Shown here piece by piece: positions 15,001 through 18,000 of a stretch of DNA of 49,502 bases. A program made the position numbers. The DNA is from Armatimonadota bacterium (GTDB taxonomy: Bacteria; Armatimonadota; SYMT01). Position 1 is the first letter of the stretch; each line of letters opens with the position of its first letter. Where the stretch lies: NCBI GenBank assembly GCA_046292385.1, contig JBKBRF010000050.1, forward strand, positions 1 to 49,502, given 5' to 3'.

Positions 15001-18000
15001 CTGGTCGACGCGGCGCCGCGGCTTCCGCAAGCGCCGGACGACCTCGACCGCCGCCGCCGGGGATCGCGGGCGGATCTCGGCGCCCACGAGCTCAGTCCCG
15101 AGTAAATCGAGACCCCGGTCGCCCGCCGCGTGCCCTGCCCATCCCCCACAGCTCGATCCGTTCCAGGAGAAGACGATGAACAAAGCCCTGCTGCTTGGCA
15201 GCGCCCTCACCCTCGGCCTCGGCGGCGTTGTAACCGGCGCCGTCACGGAGCCTCCCGCGGCATCCGCGGAGGACCAGGTTACCTGGCTGAACAGCTACGC
15301 CGCCGCCCAGGCAGCGGCGCGCCAGGCGGGAAAGCCGATCTTTCTCGTCTTCCGGTGAGAGCGCTGACCGTCCTGCAAAGGATTTGACGAGCAGGTTGTT
15401 CGTCTTGACCCCGAGATCTCGGAGCTTGCCGGAGAGTTCGTCCTCGCCCGCGTCACCAACATGCGCGGCGTCGATCTGAACCAGTTCGACTTCGACTACG
15501 ACCTCACGTGGGCCGGCTTCTTCATGAACGCCGAGGGGAAGGTCTACGGTCGTTTTGGCGGGAGAGACGGAGAGGACGCCGACGCGCACCTCACGCTCTC
15601 CGGGCTGAAACACGCCATGCGCGCCGCACTGTCCGCCTATCGCCAGACGCCGAACGCCACCCCGGAGCCGTTCCGGAAGAGCGTGGCACGGGCGGAGGAC
15701 TTCCCCGCGGCCGGGCGCCTCAAGGCGGGTGCCTGCATTCACTGCCACAACGTCTACGACTTCGAGCGCGACGCCCTCTTCTCTGCCGGAAAGTGGAAGA
15801 AGGAGCTCGCCTTCGTCTATCCGCCGCCGAAGAACCTGGGGCTCGCCCTCGACCCGGACCAGCAGAGCCGAGTGCAGGCGGTGACGCCCGGCTCACCCGC
15901 GGCGAAGGCCGGGCTGCGCGCGGGCGACCTGCTTCGGACCGTCGGCGGGCGGCCCACCGCGTCGTTCGCGGACGTGCAGTACGCGCTCCATCGAGCGCCC
16001 TCGGAAGGCGCGCTGCCGGTCACCGCGGAACGCGCGGGACAGCCGCTCTCGGTGTCTCTCCCGCTGGCGGCGGGCTGGCGAGAAAGCGATATCTCCTGGC
16101 GCGGCTCCATGTGGGGGATTCCGCCCACGGCTGCAGTCTACGGCCAGGACCTCACGGCGGAGGAGAAGCAGGCGCTCGGCCTCGCGCCGGAGGCGCTCGC
16201 GTTCCGGCAGGGCGACTTCGTGCCCGGTCCGGCTGCCCGCGCCGGCATTCGGGCGAAAGACGTCATCCTCGGCCTGGACGACCGTCCGCTGGAGATGACG
16301 ATGCTGCAGTTCAACGCCTACATCCGGCTGAACTACGAGGTCGGCGACCGCCTCAACTACCGCGTGATCCGCAGCGGCCAGCGGCTGACGATCCCGATCA
16401 CCCTGGAGCGGCGGGACTTCTGAGGTAGCGGGAGCGGCGATGACACCGCAGAGTTGCTGACGCCGGTCCGGGCACCCCGGAATCGATGAGAGCAGGGTGA
16501 GGGCTACTTCTCACGCGGCCTCACCCCCGACCCCTCTCCTGCGAGGAGAGGGGAGCTATGGACGTCAGGCAAGCCTGTTCCCCCTTCCCTCGCAGGGAAG
16601 GCTTATCCTGGATGGGGGAGATCAGGGGGCGAGCTCCGGGGGCTCTAACCGGAACCGAACGGAAGCGCCTCCCCCGAAAGCATCGCCGGGGAGCGACCTT
16701 CCGGCGACTCGCAACAGATGATACCTTCGTCGGTAAACGGGGCGTGGACGAGCCGCCGGACTCCCGCCCGGACCGGATCGAAGCTATCCGGCCAGCGGGT
16801 CAGCTCGTCACAGACAGCGCTGCGGAAATCGGCCCCCAGCAGCGCCGCGCCGCGCAGGTCCGCCCCGCTCAGGCAGGCGCCGCGCAGATCGCAGTCCGTG
16901 AGGTCGGCGCTGCGCAGGATCGCCCGGGCCAGGTCGGCGCCGCGGAGATCCGCCTCGGCCAGTACCGCCGCCTCCAGCGTGGCACCCCGGAAGACGGCCC
17001 GGCGGAGTCCCGCTCCGGTCAGGTAGGCTCGGGAGAGATCGGCGCTCCGGAACGACGCGTCGGTGAAGATCGCCAGCTCGGCCCGCACTCCCACGAGCCG
17101 CGCGCGGAGAAAGAGGGCGTCGGTCGCAATGGCGCCGTCGAGCCGCGCGTCCTCCAGGTCCGCGCCGATCAGGCAGGCGCCCCACAGGCTGCAATCGTCC
17201 AGGTCCGCCCGCCGGATCGAGGCACCGGCCAGCTCGGCACCGCGAAAGTCGCTGCCGCAGAGGCGGCACTCATCCAGCACGGCGCGGGTCAGGTTCGCCT
17301 CCCGCAGGCTCACCCGGAGCAGCGTGGCGCCGCGGAGGCTCTGCTCCTGCAGCGCCGCTCCCGCCAGGCTCTCGTGGGAGACGAACATTCCCTCCAGCGT
17401 GGGGCCGGGCACGGCGCGCATCGGGGCGCCGCTCCGGCGCGAACGGATCACCATCCTGCACCGCGATTTCCAGAGAGCGCGGTCGCGTGCCGCGCGAGAA
17501 GACTGCACTCCGTTTCTACCCGTCGTCTCCCGGCGCTCACACTCCGGTTCTCCCGCCCCCTCCCCTCAGGCAGCGCGGTCGGGGGCTTCCACGGCGAGCG
17601 TCGGTACGTCGACTTCTCCCCGGTCTGCCGCGTCGTCCTCGACCTCCTCGGTATGCTCGGTCACGTCCCCCACCACCTTGCCGCCGAGGGTCTGCGCCCA
17701 CGACTTCAGGAACTGCGACCAGATGGTGCTCTGCACCGCCTTGCCGCCCAGCTCGTAGGCGGCGGAGCGGACCACGTCCCGGATGCGCGCCCGGGTGCGG
17801 ATCCGGAGCACGAGCGCGCCGTCCTCGTCCTGCGTCGCCGCAAAGGTGACCCGGCCGGACTCCATGTGTCCGCTCTGGGTGCGGAGGGTCAGGCTCCGCT
17901 CCTCCACCGCCACCGCCACCACGCCGGCATGGCCGCCGCCGGTGAGGCGCACGTGCATGGTGTCGCCCTCTTCCAGCAGCTCGCCGCCGCCGTCCGGGCG

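Follow-up and report, generated by a model that had tools for sequence, protein, structure and literature searches.

A Trx7/PDZ selenoprotein gene of an Armatimonadota bacterium with two in-frame UGA codons and a single predicted SECIS hairpin

Can two in-frame UGA codons, three codons apart in a thioredoxin-like active site, both be decoded as selenocysteine (Sec), and could one SECIS element serve the two of them? The question is raised by a gene within a stretch of 49,502 nucleotides from an Armatimonadota bacterium (contig JBKBRF010000050.1; hereafter the window), for which the note of a genome-wide survey had proposed a double-Sec (UxxU) form of the Trx7/PDZ selenoprotein, a family catalogued with a single Sec. 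The catalogue is correctly rendered as far as the accessible parts of two reviews go, which list a “PDZ domain-containing protein, pfam13899, CxxU” (2022) and “Trx7/PDZ ... CxxU, 1 Sec” (2026); in the literature searched, the family name and the accession NF041199 occur in the 2026 review only. The reading that we favor, and hold to be probable, is that both UGAs are translated as Sec by means of one SECIS, that UxxU forms have arisen recurrently from a Cys at position 61, and that Sec64 and Cys67 constitute the CxxC of the fold, with residue 61 as a third partner. With the UxxU form the known Trx7/PDZ family is extended; no new kind of system is involved.

The gene and its double-UGA relatives

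The coding sequence (positions 15176..16423, plus strand) consists of 415 codons and a TGA stop (16421-16423), and is open from ATG 15176 to this stop except for the two in-frame TGAs. Its membership of NF041199 stands, since the read-through protein, with 443.5 bits, lies well above the cut-off of 300 and carries a Thioredoxin_7 domain and two PDZ domains; the match covers positions 2-389 of the model and includes the segment upstream of the TGAs in full. A six-frame search of the genome with the same model returned three paralogues, the window copy with 427.1 bits and the others with 398.3 and 419.1 bits. In what we take to be a functional gene, the order of parts is a leader, a DsbD-gamma-like thioredoxin domain, a short linker with a CXXCH motif and two PDZ domains. 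The hydrophobic leader (15176..15277, plus strand; residues 1 to ~34, sequence MNKALLLGSALTLGLGGVVTGAV...) is modeled with low confidence by AlphaFold2 (pLDDT 48-58 for residues 1-30), and similar leaders are found in full-length relatives, suggesting that the product would be exported, with the leader as the presumed export signal. The thioredoxin-fold domain, of the DsbD-gamma/Thioredoxin_7 type, occupies 15278..15655 (plus strand; residues 35-160) and matches Pfam PF13899 at residues 36-109 (E 1.8e-10). PDZ domain 1 (15821..16093, plus strand; residues 216-306) and PDZ domain 2 (16115..16411, plus strand; residues 314-412) are recognized both by Pfam, where PF17820 and PF13180 each match two stretches, and by fold. 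The AlphaFold2 model of the protein has a pLDDT of 93.2 and a pTM of 0.89. The neighbors of the gene encode a GDSL/beta-helix protein and proteins of no assigned function, and among the 70 neighbor ORFs from other loci that were scanned, of 122 prepared, no partner gene recurs outside one close clade; the gene neighborhoods are not conserved, so that context lends no functional support.

Both TGAs lie where the survey's note had placed them. The plus-strand codons read TTC CGG TGA GAG CGC TGA CCG TCC TGC, in which the first in-frame UGA (15356..15358) is codon 61, the second (15365..15367) is codon 64, corresponding to the catalogued Sec of the family, and the TGC of Cys67 follows at 15374..15376 (all plus strand), giving U61-E-R-U64 in the protein. 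The paralogues were likewise described accurately: the copy at C39:50265-51536 has its two TGAs at codons 61 and 64 (FRUERUTSC), and the one at C59:20596-21909, on the minus strand, has a single TGA within a C-x-x-U motif (RCVPUAAC). Homologues with paired TGAs had also been reported from elsewhere, and alignment places both of their TGAs in the same two columns as those of the window gene; in our own survey of genomes, those with two such homologues each are G048 and G236. The U64 column holds TGA in all 80 genome-contig relatives that were read (of 229), as well as in 13 loci of our survey. Both TGAs have the appearance of true Sec codons, in a gene that really belongs to NF041199.

Nor is UxxU confined to this genome: it is present in 15 of 85 unique Sec forms, in genes from other genomes, with ER, EK, EE, SH, IP, GH, HH or VP between the two Sec residues. 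The family is recorded with one Sec in the accessible review text, yet about one-sixth of its Sec forms have two. On a quick LG+G4 tree 13 changes are needed, at least 6 of which are forced by starred branches, suggesting that UxxU was gained or reversed at least six times in related bacteria. Contigs from other sequencing runs carry the same state. One from soil run X6 (227 nt, spanning 15331-15557) differs from the window at a single position (15534) and has both TGAs intact, and one from soil run X3 (388 nt) has 37 differences, none of them between 15344 and 15409. This recurrence, in 15 unique genes and in contigs of other runs, confirms that the two-TGA state is more than chance.

One hairpin and two UGA codons

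Downstream of the two UGAs a hairpin of sequence GACGAGC-AGGTT-GTTCGTC is located at 15386..15404 (plus strand), with the 7-bp stem formed by 15386-15392 and 15398-15404 and the loop AGGTT at 15393-15397. The survey's distance of 21 nt from the second TGA is right when counted from the first base of the codon; from the last base, the hairpin starts 18 nt past the second UGA and 27 nt past the first. Its position is the same in the C59 copy, as had been noted, and in the C39 copy too. An alignment of the 85 unique Sec forms is free of gaps, the register of the hairpin being identical in all of them, and a single hairpin at a fixed distance is thus common to one-Sec and two-Sec forms. Of the 595 cells of the 7-bp helix in these forms, 99.0% are paired, with compensatory changes, compared with 92.7% in shuffles, 0 of 500 of which reach the observed value, and 29-62% in slid controls. 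Covariation is illustrated by one pair with AU in 33 forms, GC in 32, CG in 10 and GU in 10, and the same helix is predicted independently by RNAalifold. All seven pairs are present in 15/15 UxxU and in 65/70 CxxU forms, and the hairpin is missing from the 18 forms without Sec, which retain 0-5 pairs each. The loop reads AGGTT in 67 of the 85 Sec forms, and every one of the six loop variants has a G at loop position 1 or 2. Work in E. coli reportedly found that the minimal fdhF SECIS has to lie at a strict spacing of 11 nt from its UGA; were the window hairpin equally strict, the 9-nt tolerance would be surprising.

The bacterial SECIS model based on the bSECISearch consensus, as set out in the accessible part of its source, allows 3-9 nt in the loop and 4-16 bp in the stem, and further asks for a G at loop position 1 or 2, with G or U as its usual successor, a distance of 16-37 nt from the UGA to the loop and an MFE of -7.5 kcal/mol or lower (PMC13188914). 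The window hairpin agrees with these values as given there, with a 5-nt loop (AGGUU), a 7-bp stem and UGA-to-loop distances of 25 nt for the second UGA and 34 nt for the first. Drawn in this way it has an energy of -8.3 kcal/mol; the MFE fold, with a 3-nt loop and an 8-bp stem, reaches -8.7 kcal/mol, and 83 of the 85 Sec-form hairpins lie at or below the same MFE limit. Consensus folding of the 15 UxxU sequences found no second conserved structure, and an Rfam search of 15100-15600 at E up to 10 gave chance matches only and no SECIS family. Folds of single sequences do show small hairpins near the Cys67 codon, but these are absent from the consensus. By analogy to the published model, we infer that the hairpin is a SECIS to which SelB would bind.

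The genome encodes selA, selB, selD, which carries a TGA of its own, and a tRNA-Sec at C11:87434-87532 (ARAGORN; Rfam RF01852, 66.6 bits). A second “tRNA-SeC” reported by ARAGORN (C77:16947-17029) was rejected as false owing to its poor stems. In the proposed mechanism, both internal UGAs would be decoded as Sec by this SelA/SelB/SelD/tRNA-Sec set with the single SECIS hairpin. Starting 18 or 27 nt past the codon, the hairpin should still be outside the ribosome with either UGA in the A site, in which case a second SelB complex could load on it following the first Sec insertion. Since the SECIS is already present for Sec64 in the family, a single TGY-to-TGA change at the Cys61 codon would provide a second Sec without extra RNA cost. 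It counts against this reading that at the recoding efficiency of 30-40% given for E. coli in the accessible part of its source (PMC4513850), two UGAs could reduce the yield to roughly a tenth.

Two further accounts of the double TGA bear on this reading. Among the nearest 120 homologues in the database almost all, and most of the best representatives likewise, are annotated as proteins of 317-356 aa that start past the TGAs, as would be expected if two-TGA copies were decaying or truncated and initiated downstream, for example at ATG 15461. Protein databases carry the family mostly under the names “serine protease Do” and “metalloprotease with PDZ”, in entries that lack the N-terminus. However, such truncations are the usual output of gene callers at Sec codons, and a product initiated at 15461 would, according to the model, be devoid of the leader, of strand 1 and of the entire active-site loop. 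Moreover, the frame is open, the upstream part is scored by NF041199 and the hairpin is kept in every UxxU gene. The 24 codons upstream of the first UGA are under purifying selection, with dN/dS values of 0.17-0.50 in the four UxxU-UxxU pairs with estimable dS, which argues for translation through both stops. We hold decay or truncation to be hardly credible. A different proposal would accept the second UGA alone as Sec and have the first read as Cys or another residue, either via tRNA-ReC (selC*) or by near-cognate suppression, so that the protein would effectively be CxxU. According to the accessible text of the UXXU hydrogenase study, genomes with such hydrogenases are enriched in tRNA-ReC, a tRNA that inserts Cys at UGA (PMC13582414), and ARAGORN proposes a “tRNA-Cys(GCA)” of 97 nt with an 8-bp long variable arm at C11:92717-92813, near selC-selD-selA and 5 kb from selC. 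Yet the acceptor stem of this candidate is mismatched and weak, its ARAGORN fold has a C at the site of the U73 discriminator of published selC* tRNAs, as described in the accessible part of the source (PMC5389517), Rfam yields neither a tRNA nor a tRNA-Sec match for it at E up to 1, and it resembles an intergenic hairpin, lying as it does between ORFs. Just one SelB scores above its cut-off, so that a selB* is absent. Furthermore, nothing would be gained by a TGC-to-TGA change that left the residue a Cys, and still this change recurred at least 6 times. We regard this proposal as very improbable.

Returning to decoding of both UGAs as Sec, a bolder extension, which we consider a long shot, is that a long-spacer SECIS of this type defines a recoding window, such that any TGY 18-27 nt upstream of the stem could be turned into Sec by one mutation. 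At 9 nt from the stem a codon would fall outside this window: in none of the 85 Sec forms does position 67 carry TGA. If true, the window would explain the repeated birth of UxxU, and the family would offer a natural system of fixed geometry for probing SelB reloading on one hairpin.

The proposed active-site triad and the CXXCH linker

The survey's note had termed the window gene a diselenide-type variant. The UxxU motif itself holds, but its assignment as the canonical redox pair probably does not, and the two-position view appears to need correction to a triad of three positions, [U/C]61-x-x-[U/C]64-x-x-C67. In a phmmer alignment to AGR2, the Cys of the active-site C-P-H-S is placed on U64 and the Ser on C67, and in the AlphaFold2 model a strand (residues 55-60) is followed by a loop (61-67) and a helix (68-75), so that the canonical thioredoxin CxxC would be U64/C67 and not U61/U64. 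“Diselenide-type” is accordingly a deduction from the motif, U61 being outside this pair, and a 61-64 diselenide is plausible. Residue 61 is an invariant extra Cys in 68/68 aligned members, retained even where positions 64 and 67 are lost, and U61 stands in its place. Within the favored reading, Sec64 would be the nucleophilic position of the CxxC and Cys67 the resolving one; residue 61, which lies in the same loop three residues before Sec64, would join them as the third redox-active partner. A bond between 61 and 64, here a diselenide, would be a plausible state of the catalytic cycle, and in members without Cys67 the two would be the sole possible pair. The PDZ domains presumably grip C-termini or loops of substrate proteins.

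In eukaryotic selenoprotein L (SelL), a UxxU diselenide is found in a thioredoxin-like fold; it sits at the CxxC position itself, and the SECIS is in the 3'-UTR. The window protein resembles SelL in having UxxU in a thioredoxin-fold protein, with a diselenide as the obvious oxidized state, and differs from it in that the canonical pair is U64/C67, so that the two Sec residues do not both occupy the CxxC positions of the fold, and in that the SECIS lies inside the coding region. That U61-x-x-U64 is nevertheless the active-site redox pair, cycling through a diselenide as in SelL with Cys67 incidental, seems to us doubtful. In its favor, the pair 61/64 shows the better conservation among family members, the Cys forms have R-C-x-P-C, resembling the C-G-P-C of thioredoxin, and the third Cys is missing from the Cys forms L019 and L021 (CVPCPAA/G) and from seven Sec forms, five of which are UxxU. 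Cys67 is thus absent in 5/15 UxxU forms versus 2/70 CxxU forms, although this link is based on 3-4 independent contrasts only (sign test p 0.25 or more). Against it stand the AGR2 alignment, the modeled start of the helix at 68, which would put U64/C67 in the usual CxxC geometry, and the degenerate members in which Cys61 outlasts position 64, suggesting a role of residue 61 independent of 64. Such a role might involve the linker that leads from the thioredoxin domain to PDZ1, where C187-I-H-C190-H191 (15734..15748, plus strand), a CXXCH motif of the heme c-binding kind, is invariant in 68/68 aligned members and occurs in 269 of the 270 family proteins that were retrieved, so that heme binding may be supposed. 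Residue 61 could then work with this site instead of with the thioredoxin pair, serving as the distal ligand or direct redox partner of a covalent c-type heme or metal in the linker. Consistent with this, Cys61, Cys187, Cys190 and His191 are among just 13 invariant columns in the 68 sequences, Cys61 persists as described above, the protein has a leader, cytochrome c assembly genes are present at C7:17763-24082 (PF01578 over its cut-off), and the best structural match of the N-terminal domain is a thioredoxin domain related to cytochrome c biogenesis. Conversely, residues 156-225, which include the linker, match no Pfam family, cytochrome or other, at E up to 10, residues 168-215 are covered by no solved fold in VIA-align searches with the whole model or its N-terminal 191 residues, and in the homologue P0027 residues 61 and 64 are both Asp, yet CIHCH is retained. 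We consider a U61 beside a covalent heme unlikely; if true, UxxU forms would be natural selenolate-heme proteins on an exported thioredoxin-PDZ scaffold. The uncovered linker is not evidence of a new fold. Taken with the triad, an invariant Cys/Sec61 accompanied by CXXCH would point to a role more specific than that of a generic thiol-disulfide oxidoreductase.

Comparison with known families

In comparison with the catalogued form of NF041199, the window protein is the same in score, domain order, Sec64 and SECIS register, and different in that its second Sec replaces the Cys of the C-x-x-U listed in the accessible review text. UxxU motifs are already listed there for a bacterial Prx-like thiol:disulfide oxidoreductase (UxxC/UxxU), for the metal-binding/putative mercuric reductase family NF041115 and for the FmdB family, and 16 UXXU sequences are given for Group 4 [NiFeSe] hydrogenases in the accessible part of a study that leaves decoding by a single SECIS open (PMC13582414). 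To judge from these sources, the catalogued families share with the window gene a pair of UGAs at a spacing of three codons, what appears to be a single SECIS downstream, and a mosaic phylogenetic distribution beside CXXU forms. They belong to other protein families and fold contexts, and Trx7/PDZ is unlike them in that its two Sec residues are not both in the canonical CxxC or metal-binding pair, and in the SECIS register fixed over 85 sequences with its 25/34-nt geometry. With one SECIS, an invariant register and one or two UGAs, these 85 sequences make for a cleaner natural test of whether one hairpin can serve two UGAs than the hydrogenases do.

DsbD-gamma/CcmG-type domains and AGR2/AGR3 have a two-position motif. 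They share the fold of the thioredoxin domain (3f9u_B, Z 13.3; 3ph9_B, 10.2; 1vrs_D, 8.8), with the active-site position aligning with U64, and differ in being without Sec, the CXXCH linker and the PDZ tandem. The VIA-align match to 3f9u_B extends over 115 aligned residues with an rmsd of 2.3, and the N-terminal domain folded alone gives a Z of 13.1 with the same structure. For the whole model, a Foldseek search against the PDB returned PDZ proteases as the sole matches, and a protein atlas search with the Cys-form homologue P0125 retrieved the family's own clusters only.

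Two in-frame TGA codons in a Trx7/PDZ selenoprotein gene

The gene at 15176-16423 (+) forms a single open frame of 415 codons with a terminal TGA stop when internal TGA is read as selenocysteine (Sec, U), and its product carries a Thioredoxin_7 domain and two PDZ domains (Pfam). Residues 36-409 match profile positions 2-389 of NF041199 at 443.5 bits (cut-off 300). At 15350-15376 (+) the sequence is TTC CGG TGA GAG CGC TGA CCG TCC TGC, such that the read-through protein contains KPIFLVFR-U61-ER-U64-PS-C67-KGFDEQVV, with UGA1 at 15356-15358 and UGA2 at 15365-15367. The strand reading, the open frame and the profile score bear out the genome-wide survey's note, which had placed two in-frame TGAs three codons apart in this gene; the paralogues it described were likewise recovered by tblastn and a six-frame family search, the copy on contig C39 having both TGAs (FRUERUTSC) and that on C59 a single one (RCVPUAAC). 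An assembly artefact is not the origin of the TGAs, since they are intact in contigs of two other soil sequencing runs: run X6, from a study other than that of the likely source run, gives a 227-nt contig over 15331-15557 with one difference, at 15534, and run X3 a 388-nt contig of ~90% identity, in which none of the 37 differences falls within 15344-15409. Run X1 was left out of this evidence because it is possibly the source of the window. The upstream neighbour (12943-15105, +) encodes a protein of 720 aa that combines a GDSL-lipase domain with a right-handed beta-helix/NosD-like region; a 583-aa ORF without a match in Pfam lies downstream (16558-18309).

Judged by its gene content, the organism should be able to make selenoproteins. 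A tRNA-Sec of 99 nt (C11:87434-87532; ARAGORN; Rfam RF01852 at 66.6 bits) adjoins selD and selA (tRNA-Sec-selD-selA, C11:87434-90122, minus strand), selD has a single in-frame TGA of its own, and selB is located on C16.

Two reviews list the family as CxxU, in the accessible text, and the 2026 one gives it one Sec (PMC13188914), as the earlier note had assumed. In the literature searched, the terms "NF041199" and "Trx7/PDZ" occur only in this review, and the available text on bacterial UxxU selenoproteins holds no UxxU listing for the family, of which paper supplements could hold members. The UxxU motif is common to the variant described here and to Prx-like oxidoreductases, NF041115, FmdB and Group 4 hydrogenases, for which it is catalogued in the portions available (reviews including PMC13188914; PMC13582414). 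Close homologues in protein databases are almost only entries of 317-356 aa whose annotated start falls just past the TGAs (P0002-P0121 and many of P0122-P0271), under names such as "serine protease Do", "predicted metalloprotease with PDZ domain" and "RseP"; this is a systematic mis-annotation of a selenoprotein family.

Recurrence of the two-Sec form

A survey of 401 genomes of the phylum, the window's own included, found NF041199 matches at E <= 1e-40 in 26. Among the 35 matches listed, seven have two TGAs (two each in the window's genome, G048 and G236, one in G258), six have one and 22 none. Two loci look broken: L040 (G236:C505) has two TGAs and a TAG, its match stopping at profile position 293, and L078 is split over two frames by a frameshift near residue 275; either misassembly or the decay of a paralogue could account for them. 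Queried with a 10-sequence alignment, a set of one genome per species yielded 229 confirmed relatives, of which the best 80 were kept, mostly labelled Gemmataceae or other Planctomycetota MAGs. A TGA stands at position 64 in all of these best 80 and additionally at position 61 in 12. After six duplicates were dropped, 103 unique genes remained (15 UxxU, 70 CxxU, 18 without Sec), a set that excludes two more CxxU loci, L045 and L057. Some labels look doubtful, or the bins mixed: over 130 nt around the motif, L043 and L115 (one MAG labelled Actinomycetota) and L101 and L116 (labelled Armatimonadetes/Armatimonadota) are identical to loci that the genome survey assigns to the window's phylum or family. 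The Alcaligenaceae labels of L068, L076, L080 and L097 are perhaps doubtful as well.

Mapped onto a quick LG+G4 tree built from the 103 genes, the UxxU label requires 13 changes, of which branches with SH-aLRT >= 95 force at least six, and it clusters no more than by chance (80/500 shuffles as low). The residues between the two Secs vary (ER, EK, EE, SH, IP, GH, HH, VP), and close pairs are distinct at position 61 only, for example L003 (U) from L022 (C) and L071 (U) from L072 (C). The two-Sec form is a real, recurrent variant of a known selenoprotein family.

One SECIS hairpin and the probable decoding of both codons

The 85 Sec forms align without gaps over 69 nt, in which columns 37-43 pair with 49-55; in the window this helix corresponds to 15386-15392 and 15398-15404 (+), closing the loop AGGTT. 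Pairing reaches 99.0% of 595 cells (shuffle mean 92.7%, 0/500 shuffles reaching the observed value) and falls to 29-62% when the partner strand is slid by 1-3 columns. One pair covaries as AU 33, GC 32, CG 10 and GU 10, and the RNAalifold consensus is exactly the same helix. All seven pairs form in 15/15 UxxU and 65/70 CxxU genes, compared with 0-5 in the 18 no-Sec forms, whose mean hairpin energy is +7.7 kcal/mol as against -9.1 (UxxU) and -9.5 (CxxU); register, loop and energy do not differ between UxxU and CxxU. The covariation imposes coordinated amino-acid changes (D-E-Q-V-V-R, D-S-Q-V-V-S, D-A-Q-V-V-R), a pattern not easily accounted for unless the RNA is under constraint. As far as the text of the 2026 review gives it, the model of a bacterial SECIS has a loop of 3-9 nt with a G among its first two positions, a stem of 4-16 bp, a UGA-to-loop distance of 16-37 nt and an MFE <= -7.5 kcal/mol (PMC13188914). 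The window hairpin has a 5-nt loop, AGGUU, a 7-bp stem and an MFE of -8.7 kcal/mol, and its loop lies 25 nt from UGA2 and 34 nt from UGA1, so that both codons fit the model. The consensus of the 15 UxxU sequences shows no further conserved structure. Between UGA2 and the SECIS, at 15368-15385 and the corresponding positions of other UxxU genes, a small hairpin of 4-6 bp whose loop contains the Cys67 codon is frequent in single-sequence folds; the consensus fold does not keep it.

Most likely, both UGAs are decoded through this one SECIS. The stem begins 18 nt downstream of UGA2 and 27 nt downstream of UGA1, so that it would lie outside the ribosome with either codon in the A site and could be used twice. 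Against this, spacing in E. coli is reportedly strict, at 11 nt. Recoding efficiency there is 30-40% per UGA according to an abstract (PMC4513850), a further point against double decoding, and for UXXU hydrogenases the accessible text of a 2026 paper names single-SECIS decoding as a possibility only (PMC13582414). The third triad codon (15374-15376), 9 nt from the stem, is TGC/TGT in 78/85 Sec forms, a non-Cys codon in seven and TGA in 0/85; this could reflect a positional limit near the edge of the recoding window, and could equally reflect a chemical need for Cys.

Alternatively, UGA1 could be read as Cys by a tRNA-ReC. The genome's only such candidate is a 97-nt "tRNA-Cys(GCA)" with an 8-bp variable arm (ARAGORN), 5 kb from selC (C11:92717-92813; L042:8718-8814), but it sits between ORFs, has a weak acceptor stem and no Rfam match at E up to 1, and lacks in its ARAGORN fold the U73 discriminator that the available text describes for published selC* tRNAs (PMC5389517). 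A second selB is also absent, and the candidate is probably an intergenic hairpin. That the two-TGA copies are pseudogenes, or are translated from a downstream start, is contradicted by selection on the codons 5' of UGA1 and by the predicted fold: over 24 codons, four UxxU pairs give dN/dS values of 0.50, 0.44, 0.17 and 0.18 (the others being dS-saturated), which fit translation from the annotated start.

The 61-64-67 triad and the CXXCH linker

When residues 31-165 were compared with solved structures by phmmer, FRCERCPSCK aligned to HHLDECPHSQ of AGR2 (E 1.3e-5), whose active site is C-P-H-S, so that U64 would fall where the nucleophilic Cys lies and C67 at the second position of the thioredoxin motif. 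The AlphaFold2 model (68 sequences; pLDDT 93.2, pTM 0.89) agrees with this predicted assignment, with a strand at 55-60, a loop at 61-67 and a helix from 68. The best structural match of the N-domain is 3f9u_B, a DsbD-gamma-like domain from a protein related to cytochrome c biogenesis (Z 13.3, rmsd 2.3, 115 aligned). Position 61 is invariant in 68/68 aligned members and is kept in degenerate members without 64 and 67 (RCARR, QCPVR, RCFKM). Five of the seven Sec forms without Cys67 are UxxU, compared with 10 of the 78 that keep it (Fisher p 0.0015), a link that is suggestive only, because the tree gives 3-4 independent contrasts. On this basis 61-64-67 is read as a relay, a three-position family motif. 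Of the "diselenide-type" reading in the survey's note, the two Secs stand and a 61-64 diselenide is a plausible relay state; the canonical pair would instead be U64/C67, from the AGR2 alignment and the model. One full-length homologue, P0027 (416 aa), reads FR-D-ER-D-KLCK, with Asp at 61 and 64 and CIHCH kept; this may be genuine variation or an oddity of annotation or sequence.

Between the thioredoxin domain and PDZ1, the linker holds a CXXCH motif, C187-I-H-C190-H191 (15734-15748, +), of the type known from c-type heme attachment; it may bind a heme, which residue 61 may in turn face. No cytochrome family in Pfam and no fold was found to match this linker, and the literature search returned no paper in which CXXCH and Sec are connected with PDZ and a thioredoxin-like domain for the family; other Sec-containing cytochromes are listed in the accessible text of the 2026 review (PMC13188914). 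Cytochrome c assembly genes are present in the genome, and the motif is invariant in 68/68 aligned members and present in 269/270 retrieved family proteins, the one exception being CIHCQ.
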